A DNA stretch of 64,000 bases from a virus (Duplodnaviria; Heunggongvirae; Uroviricota; Caudoviricetes), in the IMG/VR virus record IMGVR_UViG_3300042887_002597, positions 46,234 through 110,233 of that record. One strand, given 5' to 3'. A program made the position numbers and the translations under genes. Every line of letters starts with the position of its first letter. The first letter of the stretch is position 1. The notes under the pieces were generated by a model. The model was given only the letters and a program-made list of their open reading frames with translations. It did not search any database and was not told the origin of the DNA. This document shows positions 9,329 to 54,375 of the stretch, in pieces.

Positions 9329-12300
9329 GTAAACGGTGCAATTCCGGTACTTAATGGTGGTATGGCTATACCGCTCATACGCTCAAGTTGGCGGTTAAAT
9401 CCTTCTCCCAACTCTTCTGCATATCCTTGTGCACCATTTTCGCTCAAAGCTTGCATTTGGGGGTAAAATCTACCAACATTAGTTACAATAAATTTAGTAC
9501 CGTATTGATTTGTCCAACTAATTCCCGTCCAAAACAATCTTCCAGCTAATCCAAAAATAAAAGACATGATTTTAGCATCAAGATTTATCTTAGAATCGGC
9601 TTTTGCTTTAGCATACGCTGCGACATCCTGTTCGAGTTTTTCTTTTTGCTTTGCGGCCTCTCCTTTTATGTAGGCAATCACAGGATCCAGAAGATCTTCT
9701 ATAAGCTCTACTATCTTTTTAAAGAACAATCCTATACCGTCAATTATTGGTAAAATTAAATCTGATACTTTTGACAGCTTGTATCTAAGGTAAAGAAGTC
9801 CAGGATCTCTCGTATCTTGTGGTATAAAACTTCCTAATCCAGCAGCTTTTACTCTCAGTCGTTTAAACGCTGCCTTTTCTGCTCTTATTATTGAGTACGC
9901 TAAATCGCCTTGAGCCTTTAGTTGCCCTGGTATAGCTGCAAGCTCTTGTAATGTTGGTTTGCTTCTTGCTCCATCTAATATCTCCATTAGATTTTCGAAA
10001 ACTCCAGTTGCTGCTCCTTGGATAGCAGTTCCCTTAGCTACCACTTTCTCTTCGTATATTTTTTTAATTTGAGCTACTAACCCCGTTTCTTTACATTCCT
10101 CTATGATTCGCTTAAAGAATAGAAATATCTGCTCGTACGCTTTTAAGTCTGCAACCTTAGCGTTGAACTTCTTAATATCAGCTTGCTTTTGGTCTCTTGT
10201 GATTTTGCCCCTTTCGAGTTGTAGTTCTAAAAAGGTGTTAACTAACTGTCTAACACCAGCTTCGTTTTGTGTTATGGGTGCATCAGTGTTTTGTGTCAAT
10301 CCCACAAATACACGAGGAGCATTTACAACGAGTTGATATGCCAATCGAGCCTCCTTAGCAAGCTTTCTAAACTTATTTAATTTTTCCTTCGCCTTTGCTA
10401 TATTAAACTCATTCTTCCTTTTTTTATTTCTTATTCGTTTAGCTGTTGGATTAGTGTCTAATAGTGTATTAATGTATTCATCTAAGTATTGTTGTTCTTG
10501 TACTACAGCTAATAGCTCTTCCTCTTTATCGCTAATTAATCTCTGTACTGCCGCTTCCGCCTCATCTATTTTGTTATTGATTACACGACAGCTTCTAATT
10601 AAACGCAAATACGTCATGTGCCTATCAGCCTCTCCTCTCACAATACTTGCTACGCCAACTGCACCACCTTCAACGGAATTGTAATCTTCTGTGATGCGAT
10701 CTACCTCTTGCATGAGTTGTTGATAGTACGGATCGTTGGGTTTTATTGATAGCAGCTTCTTTAGTCTAGGTATATCAACGGTTAGCATAGTTTCAACACT
10801 CTTTGTAACAAGCATAACCTTATCGCCACCTCTTCTCAGAAAAGCTGCTACTTGTGGCGGATTCAATTTATACAAGCTTTGAACTTGCTCCATTATCTGC
10901 CTTACTATAGGCGTACTATCTCCAACACTCTCAAGAAGTTGAGCTGTTGTTGTATCTGCGTTTACTAGCTTTGTATTTTTTTCAAAAGCCTGTAATGCTC
11001 GTTGCCTTGCTTCTTTTGCAGCTGCTGATATTGACTCTTCAATGTTAGACTTAATCTCACCGTACTTTTCTTTTACGTCTGCTACCGTATCTATTGCTTG
11101 CTGTATGGCTTGTTTTATTGTCGTATATATTGTAAACAGCTTTGTGAATATAGTTTGTATAGTGTCCAGTATCAGCCTATAGTGTCGTATTGCTCTGCGA
11201 ATCTTTTTTGCTTTTGCTTTTACTCGCTTTGCAGTTTCTCTAACCTTTCGACCAGCTGCTAATCTCTCCTTTCTCTTAGTCCGTCCATTTAGCTCTTTTT
11301 CTTTTGCAATTTTGCTTTGTACACGCTTAATTGTATCCGCCAATCTGTTTTTTAAGTCATCTAACTTCTTATCTAATTGAGCTCTAACGCTTATTTTCTT
11401 AGCTTCTACTTTAGCTAATAACTTCTTCTTAAGCTCCTTTAGTTTTTTGTTGTTTTCGATAATTTGAAGCATTGTATTGCCTATCACCTTTCCACCTGGA
11501 ACGTAGATCAATTCTTTCCAGTACCCAATAAACTTCTCAGGATTAATGAAGCCGTTAAGTATTTTCATAAACTCGTTTACAACAGCTCTTATTTTTTTAG
11601 ATACGTAAGTTTTAAAGTTAGCTTCTCTGGTGAAAGTGTTTTTATACTTATTCACTATGTTTTTAGAGCTACGCGCATAGTTTGTTAGTGTTTGGAAGGT
11701 TTCCTCTATCGAAGCTATATTTAAGCTCGGCTCTACTTTTAGGCTCAGCAACGATTGCAGGTCTGCAATTTCTTGAGCCATCACTTCATTGAAGTTAAAT
11801 TCTGAAAGGTTTTGTGCGTTTAGTTGCTTAAACCTATCTCCCAAAGACTTAACCTCATCTAAAGCGCTCTTTATTATCTCCTTTTTTGTACTAATAAACT
11901 TTTTAAATTCAGGTACAATACTTTGTATCTTTTCTCTTATCTCACGAAGCTGGTCATCTAGGTTTTGTATCTGTATTTGTAGGTCTTGAATCTCACTAGT
12001 TAGTTTATTGTAGGTTGTAATTGCCGATTGAATATCTTGCGATAGTGATTGTATCCTAAGTTTTCCTTGGGATATCTCTTTACCAACAAAATACACTCTA
12101 ACTGTATTGTAAAAGATTCTTTCTCTTGTCTTATTTGTAATTGAGTTTCCTGGACCTACTGGTACTGGTGTACCTGCTGCTAATGGAGAGGGCATTGTCA
12201 ATGGGATACCGTTTGGAGCGTTTAGAGACAACGAAGACATGTAATGCTTGGTAATTCCAGCAGCAAAGTCGTCTGCATTTGCATACACACCTTGCTCTAG

Positions 12301-32584: not shown

Positions 32585-33183
32585 TTCGTCAATTGTTTTA
32601 TTGTGATTTCTAATAACGCTTTGTAAGCTGATAGTGATAGTTTCTTGGCAGTAAGACTTGTTAGTGCATTAGGGACTTCATCTGAGTCTTTGTATAAGAC
32701 CTTAGCTAATCGTAAAGCTCGTCTACGTAACTGCTCCTCAGTACGACCTGTCCACTTGAGTACTGCCTTGCTGAAACTATCAATAGGCAGCACTCGTATA
32801 ACACAATCTTGTACCATATGCTCGAACACATATCGCTTTGCACTCTCCTCAATCTCTTTGGTTAGGTAACCGTGCTTAATACACTTTGCAATAGCATATT
32901 GTTCAGCAACGTACTCTTGCATGTAAGCGTAGTTACGTTCACCCTTTACTATATGACCGACTTCGTGCATACAGACATAGAAGCTATACCTGTCAGTAGG
33001 TACTGGTATGCTCACTTGTCCGTGGTCTATAAACGCTTCATACACTACATCACGACTTGTTCTACGACCGTTGTAGGGTAGCCATTTGCGTACTCTAATC
33101 AAGTGATAATCTAAGTGATCTCTCACAATCTTTAGCATCTTTTGGTCTGCCTTTGCAAGGCGTTGTTTCGTCGTTTTCTTCAT
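32581..33183 (-). CDS. HExxH zinc metallopeptidase-like protein
   Basis: 200 aa with CMHEVGHIV motif. Confidence 0.55.
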   Translation of the reverse strand: MKKTTKQRLAKADQKMLKIVRDHLDYHLIRVRKWLPYNGRRTSRDVVYEAFIDHGQVSIPVPTDRYSFYVCMHEVGHIVKGERNYAYMQEYVAEQYAIAKCIKHGYLTKEIEESAKRYVFEHMVQDCVIRVLPIDSFSKAVLKWTGRTEEQLRRRALRLAKVLYKDSDEVPNALTSLTAKKLSLSAYKALLEITIKQLTK

Positions 33184-33854
33184 ATCTTAGCTTTAGCAAA
33201 TGCCTCGTAAACTCTCGGCGTAAGTTCCTCGTAATTCATGTCAAATCGTGTAGACATAACAGCTTGTATACCTTGGTTAGTGTATGGCGAATTACTCGGA
33301 GAACTCCACTTGCGAGAATGCTGCATCCAGTTATAAAAGTGAATGTAAGCGTTAGCTTTCTTAATGTAATCCTTTACGTCAATACTAAGCTTCCACTTCT
33401 TGATAAGTCGCACAGTACGACGCTCATTATCCAACTCCAAATCGCGCGATACGCCTAAGTGATTCTTGATACGATGCACGCGCTTACCGCCGAGCCATTC
33501 GTCAATTTTCTGCATAGAGTTACCCGCTTTATCCCACAAATCGATACCCTCATCCCACTGAGTTAAATGTGCATATTCGTGTGCTAAAATACCTAAAGCA
33601 TCAGGACGATTCATCGAACAAACAAGCGCCTTACCCTCAGAATCAAAGTACCCAGAACAGCGGATATTGCTAACTTTTACGTACTTTGTAGGACGCAAAT
33701 CGCACTTGATTCCAGTACGTTTACACTCAGCCTTAACGTGCTCAATAAACGCTAAATCTTCCTTAGTAAATCTTGTCATCATCGCAATAGCGCGAGCCTT
33801 TCTTGAGTATTTTTTTATGCGTTTCATAGTTGTTTTTTTATTCTTCATTACCAC
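33180..33854 (-). CDS. HExxH zinc metallopeptidase-like protein (second copy)
   Basis: 224 aa with ILAHEYAHLTQWDEG motif. Adjacent to, and translationally coupled with, the other HExxH protein. Confidence 0.55.
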   Translation of the reverse strand: MVMKNKKTTMKRIKKYSRKARAIAMMTRFTKEDLAFIEHVKAECKRTGIKCDLRPTKYVKVSNIRCSGYFDSEGKALVCSMNRPDALGILAHEYAHLTQWDEGIDLWDKAGNSMQKIDEWLGGKRVHRIKNHLGVSRDLELDNERRTVRLIKKWKLSIDVKDYIKKANAYIHFYNWMQHSRKWSSPSNSPYTNQGIQAVMSTRFDMNYEELTPRVYEAFAKAKI

Positions 33855-34152
33855 GTTCTTTCGCCATCTTCTTGAATATCTTATCGTCAGAAAATGCGTT
33901 GTTTGACTTCCTAATCATGTTGACAAACCACGCGACAGACTTGGCCTGTTGCCAAGCCTCTCGCACTGAATTTGCTGGCGGATACAAGAGCTCTGCCGGT
34001 ACGACAGACTCTGCATCTTCACCATGTACTACGGAATAGTGACCCGCACTATTCATCGCAGTCCGAGCTCCGGGAAATCGCTTCTCAATGAAGCGTTTCA
34101 TCTTCTGAAATTCCTTCTGCTCTGGGGATAATACAATCTTCTGCTTACGCAT
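33838..34152 (-). CDS. hypothetical protein
   Basis: 104-aa ORF. Confidence 0.55.
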   Translation of the reverse strand: MRKQKIVLSPEQKEFQKMKRFIEKRFPGARTAMNSAGHYSVVHGEDAESVVPAELLYPPANSVREAWQQAKSVAWFVNMIRKSNNAFSDDKIFKKMAKERGNEE

Positions 34153-35336
34153 TAGAACGGCATTTTAGAAGAAGTGTAATCCTCATTCATCAAGGTCTCA
34201 TCAGAGCCATCAGTCACGTATTTCTGCACTAACTGCTTAACAAACGTACGCTCAGACTGCAAGCCACCCTCCGCAGAATACAAAGGATAGATAGCTACCT
34301 CAGCACACTCTTCAAGCGTGAATCCGTCAGACATAAGACCCGCCATCTCCACTACAGAACGTGTAGAGATAGGAGTCTGAATGCGCGGAGAATCCGTACG
34401 CATCTCAGTACGAGTAGCAGACGCAATCTCTGCAAGATTCATAGCAATAGCTCTCGATAAAGTAGGCTGTACCTGGCAGATAAGAGTAGCCTCTTGAGCC
34501 GGCTCTAAGAAAGGAATCTCAGCAATAACGAAGCGGTCTAACAACGCACGGTCCATCACACGAACTGCGGTATACTCACTACCAATGTTAGCAGTACCGA
34601 TGAAACATACACCCTCTGCAACCTTAACAGTCGGAGAGTTTACAGCCTCGTCAAGACGCAAGTAACGCTGGTTAGGATCAAGTACAGTCATAAGGATGTT
34701 CCAAGCCTCTGGATGTGCGCGAGATACCTCGTCAAGCAAAATCACAGTATTCGGAGTCTTCAGAGCCTTAACAAAAGCAGACTCGTTAAAGAACGTACCT
34801 GCATCCTTAGAGAAGTGCGTGTTACCAATCAACGCACCACGCGGATCTTGCGTAGCTCCTAAGTTGATATAGAAAATCTCACGCTCCATAGCCTTCGCTG
34901 CAGCGAACGCAGTCTGCGACTTACCACAACCGGTAGGACCCGTCAATAGCATGTTAGTACCGCGCAATACAGAGCGACATATAAACTTCCACGTCAAATC
35001 CTCGCAGAACAAGGTCTCAGGACGTTTCTCTACGCACGTGTTAAGGAAAGCCATAACAGTGTTCTCTGCTGCAGGAACTGCAGTCTCATTAACTGATTTT
35101 TTACTCATAGTCTTAGTATTAGGTGAAACCTGGCGCCATTTGCCGGATTCGTTAGACAACCACATCCCAGCCTTGAAAGCCTTAGATAGCGTCATATACG
35201 TGATTTCACTGGTAATGTCAGCGCCGTTAATAGTGTTAAAGGCTCTTACTGATTCGCCACGTTTTCCAGCGGCTAAACAAACTTCTGCGATAATTGCGGT
35301 GTTCATAGTGTTTTGTGTTTTTGTGTTATTTTTCAT
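34152..35336 (-). CDS. MoxR/CobS-like AAA+ ATPase
   Basis: 394 aa. Walker A LLTGPTGCGKSQTA, Walker B VILLDEVSRAHPE, arginine-finger-like region. AAA_5 type, as found in phage CobS-like proteins. Confidence 0.7.
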   Translation of the reverse strand: MKNNTKTQNTMNTAIIAEVCLAAGKRGESVRAFNTINGADITSEITYMTLSKAFKAGMWLSNESGKWRQVSPNTKTMSKKSVNETAVPAAENTVMAFLNTCVEKRPETLFCEDLTWKFICRSVLRGTNMLLTGPTGCGKSQTAFAAAKAMEREIFYINLGATQDPRGALIGNTHFSKDAGTFFNESAFVKALKTPNTVILLDEVSRAHPEAWNILMTVLDPNQRYLRLDEAVNSPTVKVAEGVCFIGTANIGSEYTAVRVMDRALLDRFVIAEIPFLEPAQEATLICQVQPTLSRAIAMNLAEIASATRTEMRTDSPRIQTPISTRSVVEMAGLMSDGFTLEECAEVAIYPLYSAEGGLQSERTFVKQLVQKYVTDGSDETLMNEDYTSSKMPF

Positions 35337-35442
35337 ATGGTAAAGATCACCCCATTATTTGGATTCACAACCGGTTGGGGTGATAATTTTCCGGAAGTTA
35401 TGAACCGAGTTATGAACCGACTAAAAGCCGGTACTTGTGCGC

Positions 35443-36486
35443 TTAGAGCGCAGCCTGGTCCTTGCACCAATCGTAGATTGAATCAGCTACTGAGTCAACC
35501 ATAGCATCTGCTACTGAACGCTCGTCCCACGACGTTTCTACGCTAAAATCGCGACCGTAACCGGAGTTAATCTCCACGTCAACTGCGCTCTCGCAATCGA
35601 CCTCTCCAATAGAGTCAATCAGCGCACTACGCAAGTCAAAGTCCTCTTCAAATGCACGCATTACGGCGATCCAATCGATCTGCCCCGTTGCGTCGTTAGT
35701 GGCGATAGCAGCAGGCTGTACAGCCGGTTCTACTGGTGTTGTATTACACTTAGCAAGTGCGATAGCTCTCGCTTCTAAGTCGTTCAACAAAGTCCTAAAT
35801 CCACTGGCTCCTAACAACACATCGAGAGTCTGCGCAATAACTGCACCATTAGCAGCCAACGACGTATTACCAGTCCACTCGTAATCAATCACCTCAAACT
35901 CCTCTGTATTTGCGTTCTCTACAACAGCTTTATATATGAAGGTCACGCCAGTAGGCAATGTCACTGGGATTGCGATGTGGTACTGTTTGTACGGCGTATC
36001 AATAGCAGGTGTACCGATATTAAGGATGTTGCTAATTGCGTTGTTTGTCGTCTCTGAATTTTGCATGTTTTGCGTGTTTATTGTGTTATTTATTTCTTGA
36101 TTTAGTGCGGTAAATGCGGCCTTTACGCCTTCGCAAATTACCTCTTTTGGTATGGCTCCTTGACGGAGTCTATTCACGTATAGTGCGTAATCACTACACC
36201 CTTGAACGCGTCTCATCTCCACTTCGAAGACGTCAGACCCCATAGTAATAGTGGGATGTGCGGCAACGTAATCCAGCATGGATGTAGTCCTAAATTCGCG
36301 GTTAACACCCCAGTACTTAGTACGCGCGCCAAACGTGCGCATTTCGGTGAAAATTCGGTTATAGCCTTCGCCTGGTTTCATGCCAATAGTCTCCATCATT
36401 TTCTTGCGGTATTCGCGCAAAACTGGTACTAAGTACGGGTAATCGAAAGGGTGAATGTGCTCGTAGCGGTCTGTTAATTTCTGCAT
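35443..36486 (-). CDS. hypothetical protein
   Basis: 347-aa ORF, acidic C-terminus. Confidence 0.65.
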   Translation of the reverse strand: MQKLTDRYEHIHPFDYPYLVPVLREYRKKMMETIGMKPGEGYNRIFTEMRTFGARTKYWGVNREFRTTSMLDYVAAHPTITMGSDVFEVEMRRVQGCSDYALYVNRLRQGAIPKEVICEGVKAAFTALNQEINNTINTQNMQNSETTNNAISNILNIGTPAIDTPYKQYHIAIPVTLPTGVTFIYKAVVENANTEEFEVIDYEWTGNTSLAANGAVIAQTLDVLLGASGFRTLLNDLEARAIALAKCNTTPVEPAVQPAAIATNDATGQIDWIAVMRAFEEDFDLRSALIDSIGEVDCESAVDVEINSGYGRDFSVETSWDERSVADAMVDSVADSIYDWCKDQAAL

Positions 36487-36512
36487 TTTCTGTGTGTTTT
36501 TTGTGTGTTAAT

Positions 36513-36653
36513 TACTTCAATCCAAGGGCGTCTCCTACCCATAATGTAGCGATAAAAATCGCAAGGATAGTGGTGAAAAAGGTTGCTGCTTTCAGCAATT
36601 CTAGCGGGTTCTCAACCCACGCATTTTTGAGTGTTTTTATCATTTCTTTCATA
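36513..36653 (-). CDS. small membrane protein candidate (46 aa)
   Basis: My own translation: MKEMIKTLKNAWVENPLELLKAATFFTTILAIFIATLWVGDALGLK. Confidence 0.3.
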
Positions 36654-36746
36654 GCCTAAAGGTCCCTCTTTTTTTTGGTTCTACAACCGCGCAATTACTG
36701 CGGAGCGTTGTGTGTAACTGTGTGATTGTCAGCAAGTTAAGCGCTT

Positions 36747-36765
36747 ATTTAGACGTTCTCTAAAT
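36747..36765. promoter_or_regulatory. 19-bp perfect palindrome ATTTAGA-CGTTC-TCTAAAT
   Basis: One of four copies; the others are at 37718-37736, 42064-42082 and 47804-47822. Confidence 0.5.
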
Positions 36766-37009
36766 TAGTGTTTTCCGCGTTTTCTGCAGCAGAATAATGA
36801 GCATCTAAGAACTCCCAAATCTGGTCAGTTAACTCAAGGTCATCCAGCTCGTAACCGTGCTTAGTACGCATGATTGAGTCGATTACTTTCCCGTCTTTGT
36901 TTATGTACTCAAGGACGTGAATCACGTCGTCTGACGCGGTTTTCAACACGGTTCTCTGAACCGTCAGTACTTCTGTTTCTGTATATAAAATATCCATGAT
37001 TTTATGCAA
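36749..37009 (-). CDS. hypothetical protein
   Basis: 86-aa ORF. Confidence 0.55.
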   Translation of the reverse strand: MHKIMDILYTETEVLTVQRTVLKTASDDVIHVLEYINKDGKVIDSIMRTKHGYELDDLELTDQIWEFLDAHYSAAENAENTNLENV

Positions 37010-37018
37010 TTTTAGTGA

Positions 37019-37240
37019 TTATTTCTTTGACTTGTTCTTCGCATCAATAGCGTCTTCTGCAGCTCTCAAAAGCTTGATGAACAGCGGGTTATCCTTCTCG
37101 ATCTCCTCGTTGTTATCGCAGTCGCGAACTTCGTATTCCCACGATAATCCCGTGTCTGCAACGCGTACTTCGTAGTTAATGTCTTCGTGCTCAATATCCA
37201 CGAGATACGAGCTAAATGTGGTAATGTTAAAAACGTCCAT
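37019..37240 (-). CDS. hypothetical protein
   Basis: 73-aa ORF. Confidence 0.5.
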   Translation of the reverse strand: MDVFNITTFSSYLVDIEHEDINYEVRVADTGLSWEYEVRDCDNNEEIEKDNPLFIKLLRAAEDAIDAKNKSKK

Positions 37241-37263
37241 TTTATGTGTGTATTAAAGGGTTA

Positions 37264-37623
37264 TTACTTAGTTTGTGCGGTTAATGCGATCAACTGACCA
37301 TTCACCATCTTATGCGGAACTCCGCCTACCATCACGTACTTAGACTGCATAGCATTCAACGGTACACGTGGGTTATTAGCACGTACCTTGGAGATACGCT
37401 GTAATACCGGGATAGCAGTAGTCTTAGACTCAATAGCAACCACAGCAGGCGTAGAAGCCTCGAAAGATGCAGAGTTATTGAACTCTAACGCTTTCTGGCG
37501 GTAGTAGTGGGATTGCCAGTTGATCTCTTCACGCTTTTCAGCAGGGACTAACGTGAACTTCGCAGTAGATGCGGGTGTATACGCTTTTAGCGCGTTTTTC
37601 GGTTGTGTGTTCTTTTTATTCAT
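37264..37623 (-). CDS. hypothetical protein
   Basis: 119-aa ORF preceded by a promoter-like element at 37627-37662. Confidence 0.6.
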   Translation of the reverse strand: MNKKNTQPKNALKAYTPASTAKFTLVPAEKREEINWQSHYYRQKALEFNNSASFEASTPAVVAIESKTTAIPVLQRISKVRANNPRVPLNAMQSKYVMVGGVPHKMVNGQLIALTAQTK

Positions 37624-37717
37624 ATAGTAAAGATACTCCTAATATCCAGATGTACAACCGCGCGTGGCCTGCGGCCCCCTTTGCATAACCCAGTGATTAC
37701 CAACACGTTACCGTGTT

Positions 37718-37736
37718 ATTTAGAATGTCTCTAAAT
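37718..37736. promoter_or_regulatory. 19-bp palindrome ATTTAGA-ATGTC-TCTAAAT
   Basis: Copy 2 of 4. Confidence 0.5.
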
Positions 37737-37752
37737 TAGTGTTTCCCGCATT

Positions 37753-38190
37753 TTATGGGGCGACTTTTTTTACACCCGTCTTGTAAACCTTTAACCACAC
37801 GCGTGCGTTGTTCCACCACCCACTATACAAGTGGTAGCAAATGTCGTCGTTGGGATGCTTAAACTCGCTACTCCACACGAAGTTCACAATGTTCCCTGTC
37901 TTTGGATTATACAGCGTAATCTCTGTGTATTTACCCTTGCTATACTCATACAGCCGTCTACCAAACGCATTAGCCTTGGTGACCAAGGTGGAAGCATCTT
38001 CATCGTAATGAAAAGCGTCCTTCGTAAGATCCGCATGAATCGTGGTTAAAGGAGGCGCTACAACTTGGTCCAATGCCTCTTTGATCCACTCAGCTGCCGT
38101 GGGGCCTACAGTGATTTGTGTGGTTTGATATCTGCTATTCATGCCGTGTAGCAGCTTGCTTAGCAATGAGTCTTCTTCAGTAGGTTCCAT
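37753..38190 (-). CDS. hypothetical protein
   Basis: 145-aa ORF. Confidence 0.6.
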   Translation of the reverse strand: MEPTEEDSLLSKLLHGMNSRYQTTQITVGPTAAEWIKEALDQVVAPPLTTIHADLTKDAFHYDEDASTLVTKANAFGRRLYEYSKGKYTEITLYNPKTGNIVNFVWSSEFKHPNDDICYHLYSGWWNNARVWLKVYKTGVKKVAP

Positions 38191-38192
38191 GT

Positions 38193-38531
38193 TTATATCT
38201 TTTTATATGCTCCATTGTAACGCGCAGTAGCCGCGTCTCTCCATACGTTCATACGCAAGTGTACTCCCTTGTACACTGCTTGGTACACTATGCACAAGGG
38301 ACTTGCGGTAAGCTTGGTAAACTGCACGATTACGTCAGTCTCTATATTCTCCACGTCAATAGGGTGTTGTGTCCAATCATCCTCCATAGTAGGTGGATCG
38401 GAGAACACATCGTAACGTGTAATGTGCAGTGTACGTGAAGTTTCGTCATATACAGTTGAGCTATCTATGCTAATCTTAAAGGCTATGTCTAAATCTTTCA
38501 TGTAATGTAGGTTGTTTATTAGTTGGTGCAA
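38193..38531 (-). CDS. hypothetical protein (paralog of 39207..39536)
   Basis: 112 aa. Shares RTLH(I/V)T, GVY and VW(R/L)D blocks with 39207..39536. Confidence 0.55.
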   Translation of the reverse strand: MHQLINNLHYMKDLDIAFKISIDSSTVYDETSRTLHITRYDVFSDPPTMEDDWTQHPIDVENIETDVIVQFTKLTASPLCIVYQAVYKGVHLRMNVWRDAATARYNGAYKKI

Positions 38532-39174
38532 CGCACGTCATGTGCAGTAAGTCTACCATAAGGTATAGATCGTTCAGCATATCGCGGAACGCCACGCGTC
38601 TCTCGCTAGCCGTGACCATCTCAAAGTCCGCGTATCCGTCAGTATCCGTGTTGTGTACGCGTATGATGCAATACCCAATGTCTTTGCACGATTTGAGCAG
38701 ATCCTTATGCCGTAATAGTGCGCCATCCGAGATGGTTACAATACGTGACTTCTCATCAAATGACATCACATGGCCTTCTTGGAAGATATCTATGAACACC
38801 ACGTTATCCACGGTTGCTACGCCATCAGTCTCCTTGACATGGTACGATATACACGACGCTAAGCCAGATTCTCCAACAAGCGTCTGTCTCCCGCTATTAT
38901 CAATGATCCCATATAGTACTGTGGATCTATGCGCTGGAGTAGGGTGCTTGCCAATCGCAAATACCTTGGCCTTTGTGTACCTTGGCATAGCTAAATTCTC
39001 ATGCTTGTTGTCAAACAGCATCTGCTCGAACATATCCTTGAACTGCGGGTAAGTATGTCCAGGTTCTACAACCCACACGTACTGCCCCATCTTGAATTTT
39101 GGTTTGTCTTTCATACCTGCGTTTTTTGTGTGTTTTCTATTATTGTGTAAAAGCGTTGCTCTGAGTCTATTCAT
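38476..39174 (-). CDS. hypothetical protein
   Basis: 232-aa ORF. Confidence 0.6.
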   Translation of the reverse strand: MNRLRATLLHNNRKHTKNAGMKDKPKFKMGQYVWVVEPGHTYPQFKDMFEQMLFDNKHENLAMPRYTKAKVFAIGKHPTPAHRSTVLYGIIDNSGRQTLVGESGLASCISYHVKETDGVATVDNVVFIDIFQEGHVMSFDEKSRIVTISDGALLRHKDLLKSCKDIGYCIIRVHNTDTDGYADFEMVTASERRVAFRDMLNDLYLMVDLLHMTCVAPTNKQPTLHERFRHSL

Positions 39175-39206
39175 TTATGTATGTTATATGTGACCAAACG
39201 CGCGAT

Positions 39207-39536
39207 TTATGCGGGTTTGGTAACGTTTATGTTACCTTCTTCTACTGCACGATCTCTGGTATCCTTGTCTAGCCACACGTCAAGGTACAATGTCTTACTC
39301 CCGTAAACACCCTGGAACATTGCGCGATTTGCTTCTGGCCCTGTATCCATCCATGGTCTGAACACCACGGATATATTGGTCTCTGTGTTAGTTACACGAA
39401 TGTCATCTTTGCACCAAGCCCCGAACCCAGTGTTACGTAGAAACAGATTGTCTACTGTAACGTGCAATGTACGCATGTCTTCCTCGTATATGAAGTCTCC
39501 TTTTGATGGATTAAGTATTAATGTATATTCTGCCAT
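39207..39536 (-). CDS. hypothetical protein (paralog of 38193..38531)
   Basis: 109 aa. Confidence 0.55.
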   Translation of the reverse strand: MAEYTLILNPSKGDFIYEEDMRTLHVTVDNLFLRNTGFGAWCKDDIRVTNTETNISVVFRPWMDTGPEANRAMFQGVYGSKTLYLDVWLDKDTRDRAVEEGNINVTKPA

Positions 39537-39539
39537 AAT

Positions 39540-39868
39540 AGTGTTGTTTCTTGTGTATGCTAATGTCTCTTATAGGCCCATCGGGGGGTGGGATAGACAC
39601 CACACACCGTGTGGGGTTGAGTGTCTGTTTCCTATAGGAAAAAAAATTTGTGCGGGATATAAACCCGTCTAGTTGGCGTTTTAAAACGCGCTTATACCCC
39701 CGGTTTTCACGTTATTATAGGGGTGTATACCCCCCCTATATTCGCCGGAAATCATAGGGGGGACCCCCCTTGTTTACAGCTGTTCTAGAGGGGGGGACCC
39801 CTCCCGCTTATACCGGCGTATGTACCCCCCCTATGCCCCCATGTTTCTATGGGTGTATCCCCCTATGC
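39540..39868. repeat. intergenic cluster of G-run/C-run inverted repeats (GGGGGG-N-CCCCCC hairpins) with TATAGGGG/CCCCTATA motifs
   Basis: At least 6 copies: ATAGGGGTGTATACCCCCCCTAT, CATAGGGGGGACCCCCCTTG, GAGGGGGGGACCCCTCCC, TACCCCCCCTATGCCCCCATG, GGGTGTATCCCCCTATG, and CCACACACCGTGTGG. The only strongly GC-rich stretch in the window. Confidence 0.6.
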
Positions 39869-42001
39869 CTATGCTTTCGCAGATGGTGCGAGGAACTTGC
39901 TGTTCAATGTTCTTGCTATCCCTAGCATGTCCTGCGCAGTTACTGCGAAGCTGTTCTTCACTCCGTACATCCCTGAGAAGTAATCCTTCACTACTGGCTT
40001 ACGGTTGTTATCCCCGTATGACCCGTACTCTATGAAGAAGCTTATTATCTTCATCCCTAACTGGTTCTCTAAGAGCTGCATGTACTTGCGGGTATGCTTA
40101 GATGCTGCTTCCCCGTAGTAATTGCCTGTTCCACCTGGAGCTCCGTCAGAGAAGTTAATGAAGTAGCTGTCGCAGTTAGTGCTGCTTGGCACGAACATGT
40201 TACGCTTGTATTGCGCTTCGAAGCATAGTCCCTCCGGAGTCACGCTACAAGTGCTGGTTAGCGCTAAGGCTTGCATAAGCTGTTGTAGCGGGTTAATGCG
40301 GCTGTCGTAAACAGTGATGATTACTGGGCTGCTTAGCTTATCGTTAGCAGTATGTCTAAGGCTTACTTGTACGTGCATGTTAGTGCAGTGTCTAGCAGCC
40401 TTGGCAATTGCGATGGTCATAGACGATGTCTGTTCCCACTTGTCTCCTCCCATACTACCACTTGCATCCAGCGATAAGTGCAGGTTTACACCCTTATACT
40501 TATCTACGTGGATCTGCTTGAAGATGTTCTCTACTCCGTATCCTGCGTGGGCTATACGCTTAGCATCTAGACCACCAGTTCTCAAGCGGTTTGTAACCAA
40601 CTCTCTCTCCTCGTTTCTAAGCTGCAACTTACGTCCCAACATAGCTCCCTGGTTGAATCCCGCTTGTACTGCCTTGTCCTTACCTGCACTTACTCCTCTG
40701 TAGAAGTAAGAGCCTATTGCTTCGTTCAAGATATGCGCGTACACACGTTGTCTATCCTCAGGTACAGTGGAGCTTAGAAGCGCCATGTATTCCATGAAGA
40801 TACGGCCGTTCTTAGTAAGGTCGTAGGTTACTGCAGTAAAGCTCTGGATACTATCATCGCCTCCAACCTGCTGTATTTCTGCAGCAGCTTGCGTTAAGCT
40901 TTGTACCTTTCTCTGCAGGTTCTTAGTACCTTCCTTTCTCTCACCAACTCTGCCCTCTCCTAGATCCTTCTGTTTCTGCAGCTGTTCGAGAGCCTCTCGC
41001 ATCTGCGCATTAGTAAGGTCTTCTAGAGTCTCTCCTTCTCCTTCCCCACTATCTTCGCCAGACTCATCATCCTCGCCATCTTCCCCACCAGAATTGCCGT
41101 CTCCACCTTCTTCCTCATCATCCTCTTCACCGCCATTACCCTGGCCTTTGCCACCCTTGTCCTTAGACTGCTTATCCTGCGGATCTCCGTCCTTCTCCTC
41201 TTGCTCCTGCAGTTCCTCCGCCTTAGCGATAGCTTGTTCGATCAAGTCATGCACTTCCTGTGCAAGATCTATAACATCCTGGGTAGTCTTCAAACGTGCA
41301 ATGTTCGCAGTGTCTATAAGATCCAAGACTTGCTTAAGCCCAGGCATAGCGTTAGGATCCGAAGCTGGGTTCAGACAGTTGATGATACGCATCTCCCACG
41401 ACTCCCACTGCGAAGCATCACGGAACTTGCGACTCTTCAGAGCCTTAGTAATCGCATCAGCTACGAAGTACGTATCGTACAACTTGTGATAGTATGCGCG
41501 ATACCCGGGGGAAGTAGAGAACACGAACTGGTCAATACGTCTGTCCTCAATCCAGTTAATAAGCGGGAATAAGGTCTGCCACTTCATATGACCAGTGTCC
41601 ATGCGTGTTTGCGTAGTAGCATCAAAGTCAGTCATAATGCAGTGTGCAGACTCGTGTAGAGCCAGCGCTACGTGCAGGTCAAAGTTAGCATCCTTAATGT
41701 CCGCAGATAACGAGATGGTCTTGCCATCCGTATAGCTCTGGTTTCCCTGGAAGACTAGCTTGATATCCTTCTTAGTCAGGATCTTTGCGAAGTTCCCGAT
41801 GGCACGGTGATAACCCGCTAATTTAATAGCTTTGATCACATCACTGGTACCCTTGGAACCTGCACCAAGTCCGGAGAACTTATCTGATGCACCCCAGCTC
41901 TTGTCCATCCAGAAACTGCTATAATTGCGGGTTGTATCGTACTTAGACTTCGCAGTCTTTGCGTGTTTCCCGACGATCGATTTAATGCTTGCGTTTTTCA
42001 T
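39869..42001 (-). CDS. CobT-like protein: N-terminal HExxH motif, acidic Gly/Glu/Asp linker, C-terminal von Willebrand A (MIDAS) domain
   Basis: 710 aa. LHESAHC (HExxH); about 60-aa poly-acidic stretch GEEDDEEEGGDGNSGGEDGEDDESGEDSGEGEGE; MIDAS motif HLSLDASGSMGG. This architecture partners MoxR/CobS AAA ATPases. Confidence 0.65.
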   Translation of the reverse strand: MKNASIKSIVGKHAKTAKSKYDTTRNYSSFWMDKSWGASDKFSGLGAGSKGTSDVIKAIKLAGYHRAIGNFAKILTKKDIKLVFQGNQSYTDGKTISLSADIKDANFDLHVALALHESAHCIMTDFDATTQTRMDTGHMKWQTLFPLINWIEDRRIDQFVFSTSPGYRAYYHKLYDTYFVADAITKALKSRKFRDASQWESWEMRIINCLNPASDPNAMPGLKQVLDLIDTANIARLKTTQDVIDLAQEVHDLIEQAIAKAEELQEQEEKDGDPQDKQSKDKGGKGQGNGGEEDDEEEGGDGNSGGEDGEDDESGEDSGEGEGETLEDLTNAQMREALEQLQKQKDLGEGRVGERKEGTKNLQRKVQSLTQAAAEIQQVGGDDSIQSFTAVTYDLTKNGRIFMEYMALLSSTVPEDRQRVYAHILNEAIGSYFYRGVSAGKDKAVQAGFNQGAMLGRKLQLRNEERELVTNRLRTGGLDAKRIAHAGYGVENIFKQIHVDKYKGVNLHLSLDASGSMGGDKWEQTSSMTIAIAKAARHCTNMHVQVSLRHTANDKLSSPVIITVYDSRINPLQQLMQALALTSTCSVTPEGLCFEAQYKRNMFVPSSTNCDSYFINFSDGAPGGTGNYYGEAASKHTRKYMQLLENQLGMKIISFFIEYGSYGDNNRKPVVKDYFSGMYGVKNSFAVTAQDMLGIARTLNSKFLAPSAKA

Positions 42002-42019: not shown

Positions 42020-42082
42020 ATAAAGATCACCCTATTATTTGGATATACAACCGGTGTGCATAAATTTAGAATGATTCTAAAT
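42020..42082 (-). promoter_or_regulatory. early-type promoter (GGTGATCTTTATCC -7 variant, CGGTTGT -33) preceded by ATTTAGA-N5-TCTAAAT operator-like palindrome
   Basis: The same arrangement recurs at 35342-35375, 37627-37736 and 47761-47822. Confidence 0.45.
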
Positions 42083-42106: not shown

Positions 42107-42128
42107 ACTAAGAACCCCCTTTGACGGG
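42107..42128 (-). terminator. terminator-like hairpin
   Basis: AACCCCCC-GTCAAA-GGGGGGTT stem-loop following the stop of 42167..42499. The T-run is weak. Confidence 0.4.
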
Positions 42129-42166
42129 GGGTTCATTAGCTTTGTAACACACACAAAACCACTAAG

Positions 42167-42499
42167 TTAGGCTAGAAACTTCTCGCCCTTCTTAGTAATA
42201 CGATATACACCGTTGTCTACGCGCTTTAACAGCTTCTCAGACACGGCAGTACGTGCAGCACGCAATACTACACCATCGAATGAACGATTGTCCATTTCTG
42301 TAGTAGGGATGCGCATTCTACGACGTAGGGTTGAACGGTCAATAGTTTCCTCGTTTGATGCAGCGTAGAGGACACGCTCTTTCCATGTTTTGGTCATAAC
42401 CTTATGTATTGATTTATATTTACAATATACGCTAAACATTCCGTTAAAACAACGGGTTGGGTGTTTATTTTTTATAGAAAAAAATTTGCGGATCGGCAA
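42167..42499 (-). CDS. putative DNA-binding protein (winged-helix-like C-terminus)
   Basis: 110-aa ORF; the likely real start is the internal MTKTWKERV. C-terminal GVYRITKKGEKFLA resembles a wing/recognition segment. Inference. Confidence 0.45.
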   Translation of the reverse strand: MPIRKFFSIKNKHPTRCFNGMFSVYCKYKSIHKVMTKTWKERVLYAASNEETIDRSTLRRRMRIPTTEMDNRSFDGVVLRAARTAVSEKLLKRVDNGVYRITKKGEKFLA

Positions 42500-42830
42500 A
42501 AGAATTTGTTAGTTTTCCTTTCCCCCCTAATTTTCATGAGTGTCTATCTTTTTTTAATATGTCTTGTTTATACGCCCTAAGGAAACAATAGGCTAAAAGT
42601 ATCTAAGTGTCTATCCTATCCTTATGTATACAATAAAGGGGGAAGCTTTCGTTCTCCCCCCCGTACTATACTATGTGTATCTATCCCTTCTTACCCCTCT
42701 TGTTCTTCCACTTTCTCTCTTGTATCTTCTCTCGTACTAACCCCCCTAACAATAGTACTAATAGCCCTGTACTGACTATAAGGGTCATCCAATGTATTTC
42801 TATTCTATCCATCTATATGCCCTCCTTCAG
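42480..42830. repeat. intergenic regulatory region with direct repeats GTGTCTATC (x3), a GGGGGAAG...CTCCCCC hairpin and a 160-nt pyrimidine-rich tract
   Basis: GAGTGTCTATCTTT (42536), AAGTGTCTATCCTATCC (42605), ATGTGTATCTATCCC (42672). Plus-strand sequence from 42700-42830 is about 75% C/T. Confidence 0.5.
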
Positions 42831-46091: not shown

Positions 46092-46354
46092 TTAGCTACA
46101 TCGTCTGCACTGCAGTGTCCTAAGACTTCATCATGCTTCTCCTCGAACTCATACCAGGTTCCATTAGCATCCCAGATAGCAATCTCTGCTGTAGTGCATT
46201 GTGTCTTGGACTCCTTGTTCTTGTTTGCACAGTAGTTGCCCATACCGAACTGAACGCTAATGGTATTGCCGTTACTGAACTTCATAGTGAATCCAGATGG
46301 GACTAGCGTCTGCAGTTCCTGCATGGATTTAGGGTGTTTGTTTATCTTTATCAT
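46040..46354 (-). CDS. hypothetical protein
   Basis: 104-aa ORF. Confidence 0.5.
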   Translation of the reverse strand: MIKINKHPKSMQELQTLVPSGFTMKFSNGNTISVQFGMGNYCANKNKESKTQCTTAEIAIWDANGTWYEFEEKHDEVLGHCSADDVAKWIQFASTNTIAPKIGL

Positions 46355-52312: not shown

Positions 52313-52360
52313 ATTAGTTCCTCCTATTTGTTAATATGTCAAAGAGCGCATCCACAATTG

Positions 52361-52434
52361 TGCGCCTTCCTGGGATCGAACCAGGTACCTACTGATTATG
52401 AGTCAGTTGCTCTAACCTAATGAGCTAAAGGCGC
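52361..52434 (-). tRNA. tRNA-Met/Ile2 (anticodon CAT)
   Basis: Folded by hand on the minus strand: acceptor GCGCCTT/AAGGCGC, D-arm GCTC-ATTAGGTTA-GAGC, anticodon arm ACTGA-CTCATAA-TCAGT, T-arm CCTGG-TTCGATC-CCAGG, discriminator A. Confidence 0.8.
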
Positions 52435-52435
52435 T

Positions 52436-52530
52436 ACTGTACTCAAGGAAGGAATTGAACCTTCACGAAGATCCTCGCTGGAAAGGCTATAACAGTTTGG
52501 ATAACTGCTTATACCTTAAGCAATCCTTTT
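52436..52530 (-). tRNA. aberrant tRNA-like element (T-arm GAAGG-TTCAATT-CCTTC present; rest does not fold canonically)
   Basis: Good T-arm and a possible acceptor GCTTAAG/CTTGAGT with 2 G-U pairs, but no clean D or anticodon arm by hand. About 82-90 nt, so possibly a type II tRNA, a pseudo-tRNA or an interrupted tRNA. Confidence 0.25.
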
Positions 52531-52811
52531 ATAGATCTTCTCGTTTGCTCCCCTTAGCGTCTACCATCGACCAGGGCCTCCTGATCCTTTCGCCACTTGA
52601 GTATGTTGCCCCACCTGAGATTAGGGTGAGTAGTTGTATCGGTTTGTTTCTTTCAAAAAACCTGCTGGGCATCCCCGTTAAAAAAAGTCAACACTCTTGG
52701 GAGGAGTTGTGTAGTTCTCCTTTGTTCCCACTATGTCCCACTCGCGCCGTAGACATTCTGCGAAATCATTGTTTAAGTCTTGATTCAAAGACTCTGAGTA
52801 TCTCTTACTCA

Positions 52812-52911
52812 TTGCAATCAGGATAGGATTCGAACCTATATTAACGCAAGTAGATTGGTACTGACCTTTCGGTTACTCCCGTTTCGCTGTGCTACCCAAT
52901 TACACCACCTG
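52812..52911 (-). tRNA. aberrant or intron-containing tRNA-like element (about 100 nt)
   Basis: Acceptor AGTCAGG/CCTGATT, D-arm GTGT-AATTGGGTA-GCAC and T-arm ATAGG-TTCGAAT-CCTAT fold. About 27 extra nt sit where the anticodon arm and variable region should be, and I could not identify an anticodon. Confidence 0.3.
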
Positions 52912-52929
52912 ACTGTGTTTTATTTTCTG

Positions 52930-53001
52930 TAGTCGATACGGGAATCGAACCCGTGTTACCAGAATGAAAATCTGAGGTCCTGACCCCTAGACGAATCGAC
53001 C
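52930..53001 (-). tRNA. tRNA-Glu (anticodon TTC)
   Basis: Acceptor GGTCGAT/ATCGACT (G-U at 1:72), D-arm GTCT-AGGGGTCA-GGAC, anticodon arm TCAGA-TTTTCAT-TCTGG, T-arm ACGGG-TTCGATT-CCCGT. 72 nt. Confidence 0.75.
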
Positions 53002-53007
53002 TTATAG

Positions 53008-53079
53008 AGCTTCCTGTAGGAATCGAACCCACTTATCCTGAGTACAAATCAGGTGCATCACCTTTTATGCTTAAGAAGC
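53008..53079 (-). tRNA. tRNA-Thr (anticodon TGT)
   Basis: Acceptor GCTTCTT/AGGAAGC, D-arm GCAT-AAAAGGTG-ATGC, anticodon arm CCTGA-TTTGTAC-TCAGG, T-arm GTGGG-TTCGATT-CCTAC. 72 nt. Confidence 0.8.
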
Positions 53080-53084
53080 TTTAG

Positions 53085-53158
53085 TTGCGGGAGCAGGAAT
53101 CGAACCTGCGTCATTTGGCTTATGAGACCAAGCTGGTACCTTCTCCAGTCCACCCCGC
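53085..53158 (-). tRNA. second CAT-anticodon tRNA (Met or lysidine-Ile) with non-canonical acceptor stem
   Basis: D-arm CTGG-AGAAGGTA-CCAG, anticodon arm TTGGT-CTCATAA-GCCAA and T-arm GCAGG-TTCGATT-CCTGC are clean. The acceptor GCGGGG(T)/TCCCGC pairs 6 bp with one extra or bulged nt. Confidence 0.55.
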
Positions 53159-54375
53159 CACATTAGAAAAAGCCTGAGACTACAGCTTATATGCTAGATC
53201 TTTTGTCGGATTATTGATTCCCTTCTTGTCCAGTTCCTTTTGAGAACTATTCTAGCAATGCCGATTGGTTAGACCAATCACTCCTTGAGCTACTTGTTTT
53301 GAACTACTCTCGTCGTACTCCATCTGTTCAACTCTGCCGAGCTGATTCATCCTTGCGGGATTACAAACTTTTAAAACGAATCACCTTAGGCTTGCGACCT
53401 TCGATGGCATCCGACAGCCGGATACTATGTAGGCATCTTTCGTTTGTAGCTGGTAAGCGCTTGGGCTTTGTTAATTTTTAGTTTTTTGCTAATCATATGC
53501 AAAGTTGTATCGGTTGCAGATCGTGAAAGTAGTGGCTTACCTTTAAGCTAACCCATCTTTTGGACGAGTCAATACTCAACTACTCTCTGAAGTGTCCCCA
53601 CCTCCATACTTTGAGAATTCTACGCAAACAAACCTTGGTGGGTTTATCTACGGTGCAGTAACGACACCACTCGTACACTGACGTTGCCTTTCGGCTTTAA
53701 GATTCCTCTCATATTGGAACCCGTAATCATATACTCGGATAAGCATATTCCTCACGTAAAAGTCAAGTTCCTATAGGTTATTCTTATTGCTTTTCCAAGC
53801 TCAACCAGATGACCTGCATCACCCAGTTACCATTCCACTTCCCCTACAGTGTTACCCTCAGGTACAAAGGAATGGTAATATCCTACTTGCCTACTCGAGC
53901 TCCTTGCGAAGCCGCAAACCACATTAACCAATGCAATTCACATTATCCTGGTTTCCCAGTTTATTTAACGACCATAGGCGGCCGTTGTATCGCTACTCGC
54001 TTGTCATGGGCGAACCAACGTGGTGGGAGTAGCAATGTCTTAATACTTTAAAGAACGTTTTGGTCTTTCGTGTGACCGTTATATTCTAAATATACGACCT
54101 TTTTTTCGAAAGGGCAACTTTTATTTAGTTTTTTTCTTCTTTCTTTCTGGTGGTGCATTGTGATATGCTATCTCCACCTTAATAGGACCATTCTTAAACT
54201 TTGCTAAATCGTAGGTCCAAGTTGACGTAGTATCCTCACCTGCGTATACAACTGAGTACTTTTCTCTTCTTAATGCCATAATGATGCAATTGCTTTGAAT
54301 ATAGTTGCTACACTGAACATTACGATCATTAGTACACCAGTCAATGCCGCTACTGCGAATATGACGTCTCCTATG

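Follow-up and report, generated by a model that had tools for sequence, protein, structure and literature searches.

A conserved intergenic element of phased G-run/C-run stem-loops and a duplicated palindromic box in an uncultured phage

A 64,000-nucleotide (nt) stretch of an uncultured virus of the Caudoviricetes (IMG/VR record IMGVR_UViG_3300042887_002597, positions 46,234 to 110,233; hereafter the window) contains, between two genes read in the same direction, a gap of 332 nt crowded with palindromes built of G-runs and C-runs. This locus raises the question of what a segment of this kind does at the boundary between two genes, and whether it acts as DNA, as RNA, or as both. The gap is a real non-coding element that is previously undescribed and strongly conserved. 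We tentatively favour the view that it is an enlarged, clade-specific cassette of the promoter-early stem-loop (PeSL) kind, in which a terminator or attenuator is joined to a promoter/operator. All coordinates are those of the whole window, and the sense strand of the element is the minus strand.

PeSLs are cassettes of T4-like myoviruses that consist of a polyG-loop-polyC stem-loop, an AT-rich region, and an early promoter. They flank small gene cassettes and mediate modular shuffling in these phages (Arbiol, Comeau & Krisch 2010, PMC2839356; Comeau et al. 2014, PMC4122927). Here, we describe the anatomy of the element, its conservation and covariation among uncultured relatives, and the duplication of its 3' part upstream of the neighbouring operon, and we weigh the roles that have been or can be proposed for it.

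Anatomy and conservation of the element

The minus strand carries every large open reading frame (ORF) of the window in the ORF listing, and the gap therefore lies downstream of a gene encoding 710 amino acids (aa) and upstream of a 109-aa gene (Table 1). An earlier reading made from the letters alone (the sequence-only reading) had placed the gap upstream of the former, which it called CobT-like; the orientation was wrong, since the gap follows the stop codon of that gene. The name itself holds only loosely, as the Pfam CobT match has an E value of 1.9 and two homologues are named vWA-domain proteins by JGI. A gene for an AAA/MoxR (CbbQ-type) partner lies nearby (34152..35336).

The cluster of G-run/C-run palindromes that had drawn attention to the gap is real, and the strings quoted from it are present at their positions. 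The GC content of the gap is 50%, compared with about 38-46% in its surroundings, and both G6 runs and ATAGGGG sites crowd into it. All five ATAGGGG sites of the window fall within 150 nt (39717-39866); their total is at the level of chance (4.5 expected), and it is the clustering that is non-random. Nine of the 14 G6 runs of the window lie within 250 nt (39583-39831), and here the total itself exceeds expectation (5.7), a count of 14 being reached in 1 of 100 shuffles. The other five lie at 42126-42746, in the gaps upstream of the 710-aa gene, to either side of a 76-aa gene. A repeat search of the gap found 22 inverted-repeat pairs and direct repeats at a spacing of 33-34 nt; Tandem Repeats Finder returned nothing for the gap, and ARAGORN found no tRNA within it. 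An ORF of 24 codons inside the gap was rejected, its start being missing, by eye, from the sequence of the L085 lineage. The suggestion that the G-runs could form a G-quadruplex does not hold for the canonical intramolecular type, which takes at least four runs of three or more G with loops of about 1-7 nt, or up to about 12: the sense strand has 5-6 G-runs, whose 3' ends are mostly 27-34 nt from the next run, with one adjacent pair at 10-11 nt. A non-canonical form with long loops, or an intermolecular one, is conceivable.

Table 1. Features of the element and of the adjoining cassette, from upstream to downstream on the sense strand
Feature	Position	Strand	Description
Canonical intrinsic terminator	42637..42662	-	G7..C5; about 140 nt upstream of Box B
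Box B, paralogue of Box A	42441..42500	-	CCGCAAA-T7-CTATAAAAAATAAACACCCAACCC and hairpin CCGTTGTTTTAACGG; 45-60 nt upstream of the 76-aa gene
76-aa gene	42167..42397	-	Weak winged-helix Mrr_N match (E 7e-4); first gene of the bracketed cassette
Second canonical terminator	42112-42134	-	G-run/C-run hairpin with T-rich tail; from the terminator scan
710-aa vWA/'CobT-like' gene	39869..42001	-	Its stop codon, TAG (39869-39871), borders the element on the upstream side
Intergenic gap between ORFs	39537-39868	sense = minus	332 nt
First weak G/C unit	39847..39867	-	CATAGGGGGATACACCCATAG; -5.1 kcal/mol; closest relatives only
M1-U1 hairpin	39787..39840	-	G5, then M1 CATAGGGGGGG pairing with U1 TCCCCCCCTCT; -24.1 kcal/mol; helix 99% paired
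U2 hairpin and tail	39748..39771	-	AAGGGGGGTCCCCCCT and T-rich tail TATGATTT; -9.7 kcal/mol; most terminator-like unit
U3	39716..39740	-	TATAGGGGGGGTATACACCCCTATA; -11.8 kcal/mol; G7 conserved
Block	39704..39718	-	ATAATAACGTGAAAA; consensus ATAAT.ACGTGAAAA nearly invariant; CGTGAAAA invariant
Two-tier stem-loop	39654..39701	-	48 nt; outer stem GGGGGTATAAGC / GGGTTTATATCCC; -20.0 kcal/mol
Hairpin V	39676-39689	-	GCGTTTTAAAACGC; enclosed by the outer stem of the 48-nt stem-loop
Box A	39613..39659	-	CCGCACAAA, T8 (39639-39646), palindrome TTTCCTATAGGAAA (39628-39641), CAGACAC (39620-39626), TCAACCC
Hairpin VII	39600..39614	-	CCACAC-GGT-GTGTGG; 100% paired
Hairpin VIII	39577..39592	-	CCCACC..GATGGG; in the leader of the 109-aa gene
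109-aa gene	39207..39536	-	Start codon 39534-39536, downstream of the element

The 710-aa protein has hundreds of metagenomic homologues. Relatives of the element were gathered from the DNA around homologues of 93, 91, 75, 53, 47, 46, and 45% identity, and by two pattern scans, of JGI metagenomes and of IMG/VR. The motif does recur in related phages: these sources yielded 23 distinct sequences, found in freshwater metagenomes and uncultured phages. All copies share one architecture, with a spacing almost free of insertions and deletions. Read 5' to 3' on the sense strand, a G5 run and ATAGGGGGGG are followed by a unit of G-run, 1-3 nt, and C-run, with GGGGTCCCCCCC in most lineages; by a second unit exactly 34 nt further on, often with a T-rich tail; by a G7 unit; and by ATAAT.ACGTGAAAA. 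A variable two-tier stem-loop, a run of T7-9, CTATAGG..(G/A)ACAC, and a 6-bp hairpin complete the series. The distance from the start of U1 to that of U2 is 34 nt in nine of nine related loci checked. Relative to CGTGAAAA, the G-runs end at their 3' side near -113, -86, -52, and -18 in most lineages, positions that are shifted by about 10 nt in the group of L093, L096, and L102, and 63-66 nt lie between CGTGAAAA and the T-run in every one. Within the window, the ATAAT.ACGTGAAAA and GGGGTCCCCCCC blocks occur once each.

The individual parts vary to different degrees. The long M1-U1 hairpin, which contains a small apical stem (39805-39819), keeps its G7 and C7 in nearly all relatives, and U1 can alternatively fold by itself as GAGGGG-UCCC-CCCCUC. 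In 15 of 19 relatives, 4-5 of the 8 nt after the U2 hairpin are T, and the C-run partner of U3 is missing in several lineages. Seven nt separate the end of the 48-nt stem-loop from the invariant T8 run. The core of Box A, TTTCCTATAGGAAA, is a perfect 14-bp palindrome here, which a C-to-G change disrupts in 7 of 19 relatives, and hairpin VIII appears in relatives as CCCATC/GATGGG or CCCACC/GGTGGG.

The element is more constant than the coding DNA that precedes it. Its identity to the copies in L018, L085, and L016 is 80, 72, and 93%, compared with 63, 59, and 80% for the DNA of the 710-aa gene, and it persists as a unit of fixed geometry across lineages whose proteins are 36-93% identical. In every relative it lies between co-directional genes, with a stop codon directly before it and the next start 60-130 nt beyond it, and the genes around it change. 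In L093 and in L096, L101, and L102 it comes after small unrelated ORFs, and in L090 about 8 kb separate it from the CobT-like gene further downstream, which has no element after it. The first genes downstream of the element likewise differ or are reordered between lineages.

Outside these sequences the element is hard to find. Neither the gene nor the element had a match at the DNA level in 50,697 deposited phage records (megablast and blastn), and the box pattern had none in 185,579 bacterial and archaeal genomes. Scans of IMG/VR with the 16-mers GTGAAAACCGGGGGTA and TTTTTCCTATAGGAAA gave chance matches apart from one true relative. The nearest cultured relatives are Microcystis phage Mel-JY01, whose capsid coding sequence carries the note 'T4-like bacteriophage', and the Flavobacterium myovirus immuto; matches to T4-type baseplate wedge families of PHROG are present, and the relationship to T4 is distant. 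In Mel-JY01 and in the 484-kb phage LR756508 the CobT-like gene is present and the element absent. One gene downstream of the homologue in Mel-JY01 (L089 5607-6449, record 149966-150808) is an unannotated gap of 840 nt that contains TTAACGTGAAAAC, GGCGGGGGGAAGGGGGGC, and a T-run and may be the counterpart of the element in a very diverged form.

Covarying hairpins and a duplicated box

The gap folds on the sense strand at -119.6 kcal/mol (z = -2.9, compared with z = -1.0 for the antisense strand). Over the relatives, the mean shuffle z is -3.0 for sense and -2.6 for antisense, and the sense energy is always the lower of the two; because z is similar on both strands, much of the structure is plain palindromy. 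The ATAAT.ACGTGAAAA block is unpaired in all folds. The arms of single hairpins were exchanged between lineages and their duplex energies compared over 5000 permutations, in figures that are inflated by shared ancestry. Cognate arms paired better than permuted arms in hairpin VII (-7.68 and -4.96 kcal/mol), hairpin V (-5.07 and -2.89 kcal/mol), and the apical stem of M1-U1 (-2.87 and -0.95 kcal/mol), each with 0 of 5000 permutations as good, and less markedly in the outer stem around hairpin V (-8.51 and -7.45 kcal/mol, 17 of 5000). Hairpin VII shows compensatory changes at three positions, its arms reading CCACAC/GTGTGG, CCGCAC/GTGCGG, CCACAT/ATGTGG, and TTACAC with GTGTAA or GTGTAG in different lineages. 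These results agree with pair counts on a 13-sequence alignment, in which 92% of cells are paired, compared with at most 67% when partners are slid, and in which seven pairs have changed on both sides. The wobble pairs seen are G-U on the sense strand.

RNAalifold also proposed a long-range helix (about 39785-39776 with 39668-39661), which had good pair counts in the 13 sequences and failed the exchange of arms over 22 lineages (-6.76 kcal/mol cognate, -7.05 permuted, 3833 of 5000). It is therefore not counted, and support is confined to the local hairpins. The covariance models of Rfam 15 found nothing in the gap at gathering thresholds, and at E <= 10 they returned only microRNA and small-RNA noise far below threshold. 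A resemblance of U3 and its A-rich tail to the preQ1-I type was set aside, there being no Rfam match and the hairpin being lost in several lineages.

The 3' part of the element exists twice. The sequence-only reading had noted a further copy of a 'AAAAAAAATTTGTGCGG' box near 42485, and this copy is indeed present: a search with a 48-nt profile of the box (nhmmer) gave two significant matches in the window and no more, at 39659-39613 (E 2e-14) and 42500-42453 (E 2e-11). Both are on the sense strand in direct orientation, and after each come CAACCC, a hairpin, and then a gene start. Similarity also extends upstream, where one copy has CGTGAAAACCGGGGG and the Box B copy has CATGAAAATTAGGGGGG (about 42537-42521). 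Since it reaches beyond the boxes, the whole 3' module has been duplicated. The two boxes thus bracket the 76-aa and 710-aa genes. In two phages of one sample, with 710-aa proteins of about 53% identity, the first 55 nt after the box do not differ. We infer that the 76-aa protein, with its winged-helix-like match, is a candidate for a regulator that binds the boxes.

Two further observations concern this cassette. The 76-aa gene and its leader (42167-42500) are far more conserved than their neighbours, with 87% DNA identity to L018, compared with 63% for the next gene. The 9-mer A(T/C)AGACACT occurs four times in 3 kb on the minus strand, twice upstream of Box B (42614 and 42547), once inside the 710-aa gene (41317), and once in Box A (39628). 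Relatives show ATA(G/A)ACAC variants at the matching places, and ATAGACACT has just one further copy in the rest of the 64 kb.

Readings of the element

The resemblance to PeSLs is broad. Like them, the element is an intergenic composite between co-directional genes in the non-structural (hyperplastic) part of the genome of a large T4-type myovirus. PolyG...polyC stem-loops lie upstream, followed by an AT-rich tract with a putative promoter region and the start of the next gene. The PeSL-like stems (U1, U2, U3, and M1-U1, at -9.7 to -24.1 kcal/mol) are conserved in relatives. Copies flank cassettes and coincide with differences in gene order between relatives, and the repeat is better conserved than its surroundings. 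The element nevertheless departs from a PeSL in being about 330 nt long with 3-5 phased stem-loops, rather than roughly 70-100 nt with one, and so about four times longer; in having a T8 tract but no sigma-70-like -35/N17/-10 promoter; in adding the invariant ATAAT.ACGTGAAAA, the palindromic CTATAGG box, and a hairpin downstream of that box; and in being kept as one unit of fixed geometry across lineages.

In the PeSL-like reading that we tentatively favour, the 5' two-thirds of the element would encode phased, very stable G-run/C-run stem-loops (M1-U1, U2 with its U-rich tail, U3, and the 48-nt two-tier structure with U8). These would terminate or attenuate transcription coming out of the operon of the 76-aa and 710-aa genes, and might protect the 3' end of its mRNA. 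The 3' third (T8, TTTCCTATAGGAAA..ACAC, and the leader hairpin) would be a phage-specific promoter/operator from which transcription resumes into the 109-aa gene and onward, which makes Box A a candidate promoter/operator. With the paralogous box and hairpin before the 76-aa gene, the two boxes would delimit a two-gene cassette, perhaps under the control of the 76-aa protein or another phage factor, and the element may be a conserved linker where recombination swaps gene blocks. The phage's own canonical terminators (42662-42637 and 42134-42112) share the G-run/C-run hairpin style of the units in the gap. Among the roles listed in the sequence-only reading, a stack of terminators or an array of sites came closest. 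The element is more than a terminator stack, however, in that its 3' palindromic box and hairpin are duplicated upstream of the neighbouring operon.

Several findings weigh against this reading. A terminator scan of both strands found no hairpin with a T-run in 39537-39868, and the T8 run sits 4-8 nt past the preceding stem, a non-canonical geometry for a terminator. A scan for sigma-70-type promoters found none in the gap except a 9/12 match that overlaps the start codon. The box fits neither the sigma-70 consensus nor, by eye, the TAnnTTTG consensus of Bacteroidota; inspection of both strands at both boxes found neither TAnnTTTG nor TTTG motifs of that phylum. Only two copies of the box occur in 64 kb, about one third of the genome, whereas PeSLs reach tens of copies in a genome. 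Finally, a simple terminator and promoter would need neither the invariant, single-stranded ATAAT.ACGTGAAAA nor a spacing kept free of insertions and deletions for about 250 nt; both features are more in keeping with a phased nucleoprotein complex or a single folded RNA. A reading of CTATA/GG as a T7-type promoter was set aside, as no single-subunit RNA polymerase is in view and just the hexamer is shared.

Two other transcriptional devices invite comparison. As in an intrinsic terminator, the transcribed strand has hairpins clamped by G and C close behind a stop codon, one of which, U2, carries a U-rich tail. Most hairpins of the element, in contrast, have no adjoining U-tract, U8 is 4-8 nt from its stem, and sequence, run lengths, and spacing are conserved far beyond the needs of termination. 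In the manner of the lambdoid nut site (boxA and boxB) or the put site of HK022, a linear motif (AGACAC.CAACCC) is followed by a covarying hairpin, in two copies that each start a transcription unit. Here the loop is unconserved (GGT, AAT, GGG, TGC, or TAC) and there is no sequence similarity, so that the likeness is one of analogy only; no N-like or Q-like protein was identified.

Because of the fixed geometry and the invariant single-stranded block, readings as a folded RNA and as a protein-binding array stay in consideration. In the first, the core of the element, about 250 nt (39,840-39,590), would be an undescribed structured RNA of an uncultured freshwater T4-like phage clade. This is a serious candidate, though on balance we judge it unlikely. 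Such an RNA might be a non-coding transcript of ~200-250 nt ending at U8, or a riboswitch-like or attenuator leader that senses a ligand or a protein. The phased stems would scaffold a core of AUAAU.ACGUGAAAA and decide between stopping at U8 and continuing downstream. The essentially indel-free spacing of the 23 sequences, conservation above that of the flanking coding DNA, the covariation of several hairpins, and the invariant unpaired block all speak for it. So do sense folds that go beyond those of shuffled sequences and are invariably lower in energy than the antisense, and the presence in this phage of another large non-coding RNA, GOLLD. On the other side, the antisense strand is nearly as structured, no Rfam family matches even at E <= 10, and the failure of the long-range helix leaves only local hairpins. 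Moreover, the G7 and C7 runs are invariant rather than covarying, the U3 hairpin has been lost in several lineages, the 3' module stands alone at Box B without the hairpin array, and no promoter for such an RNA was found.

The same fixed spacing could instead reflect phased DNA sites for a phage protein, with the G-run units and the box as sites of an operator- or enhancer-like complex or of a recombination linker, an explanation that we consider improbable. The strict 34-nt spacing of the units and the 14-bp palindrome of the box core TTTCCTATAGGAAA suit it, as do the spacers after U1 and U2, which are alike within a genome and co-vary between lineages (GCTGTA, CCGCG, CGGCG, CGGTGYA). The adjacent and highly conserved 76-aa winged-helix-like protein would be a candidate binder, and the authors of the PeSL work themselves speculated that GGGG...CCCC stems could be the target of a DNA-binding protein (PMC2839356). 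The centres of the G/C palindromes, however, vary in length (T, A, AT, TA, or ATA), which alters the spacing of half-sites; the stems covary, which double-stranded binding sites do not need; the palindrome of the box is broken, with G for C, in 7 of 19 sequences; and 34 bp is a non-integer number of helical turns.

A replication origin, one of the roles first proposed, is very unlikely. Direct repeats at fixed spacing are followed by T8 and palindromes, as iterons are by an A/T tract and hairpins. The non-template strand has 5-6 G-runs of at least four, compared with 1-3 C-runs, and a local G-skew of up to +0.39, which might allow an R-loop primer to form through the sense G-runs. Origins of T4 consist of a promoter and a downstream unwinding element. 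Phased direct repeats near an A/T tract and palindromes, or non-template G-runs, are likewise seen in the lambda ori, T4 oriF and oriG, ColE1, and mitochondrial CSBII. Against this, cumulative GC skew is monotonic across the whole window with no inflection at the gap, the A/T tract is very short at 8 nt, no replication-initiator gene is adjacent, and the element occupies different gene junctions in different lineages, so that the proposal finds no positive support.

A packaging signal or terminal-repeat boundary (pac, cos, or direct terminal repeat) is scarcely credible: the G5/C5 palindrome CCCCCATAGGGGG with its ATA motif in the non-coding T7 end (T7 positions 27-39), the 16-mer TATAGGGGGGGTATAC near the ends of several unrelated viral contigs, and assemblies that begin exactly at Box B gave the idea some substance, but the T7 palindrome is a short, single copy with the C-run first, inside the 160-bp terminal repeat of a podovirus, and resembles the element superficially, the other matches of the 16-mer share nothing else with it, and the contig starts lie at Box B and not in the gap. 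Those starts, from which a genome terminus at Box B had been considered on the strength of three contigs starting at TCTATAG, arise because the 55 nt described above are identical in two co-assembled phages. The shared conserved island is a branch point of the de Bruijn graph at which assembly breaks, and other assemblies read through it. Many short contigs cover no more than the segment that begins at the 76-aa gene, or at Box B upstream of it, and ends at Box A.

Neighbouring elements and significance

The 16-mer TATAGGGGGGGTATAC occurs in the unrelated IMG/VR contigs L008 (around 11212-11227, minus strand), L002, L006, L007, and L012, in several of them 60-400 nt from the contig end. In L008, an array of ATAGGGGGGG motifs is interleaved with CCTAAAA repeats and recalls the left end of T7, with its CCTAAAG repeats and CCCCCATAGGGGG.

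The window contains a second repeated regulatory module on the minus strand, at about 47810-47738, 42075-42002, 37730-37624, 36755-36653, and 35375-35337, upstream of the 710-aa gene and the AAA gene among others. It comprises a palindromic TTAGA-N4-6-TCTAAAT(A/T), which resembles the T4-type late promoter TATAAATA, and, about 40-55 nt further on and just before the start codon, CGGTTGT..(G)GTGATCTTTAC. A G/C-run hairpin with a T-rich tail precedes the copies at 42075 and 47810; of these hairpins, the terminator scan confirmed only 42134-42112. The region of the AAA and vWA genes also stands out in composition, lying within a plateau of GC content (0.44-0.48 at 33000-42000, compared with about 0.38 elsewhere in the window) that could point to a separate origin of this block.

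At 53171-53587 on the minus strand is a full-length GOLLD RNA (Rfam RF02032, 260 bits, E 6e-73), directly upstream of four tRNA genes (Met, Glu, Thr, Met; 52360-53159, minus strand), all within a non-coding stretch of 1.4 kb. A fifth tRNA-like match of 100 nt (52815-52914) is found by Rfam and not by ARAGORN.

Hardly any of the regulatory DNA and RNA in uncultured environmental phages has been charted, and the element described here is a non-coding segment that varies less than the neighbouring protein genes. Should it be an enlarged cassette of the PeSL type, the model in which mobile regulatory linkers shuffle genomes would extend from the T4 relatives of coliphages and vibriophages to distant freshwater myoviruses, and a concrete promoter/operator motif would be in hand for this clade. 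If it is instead a folded RNA, it would represent a new class of phage RNA, in a genome that also carries GOLLD. In either case, GGGGTCCCCCCC, ATAAT.ACGTGAAAA, and T8-CTATAGG are markers with which this clade of phages can be found in metagenomes.

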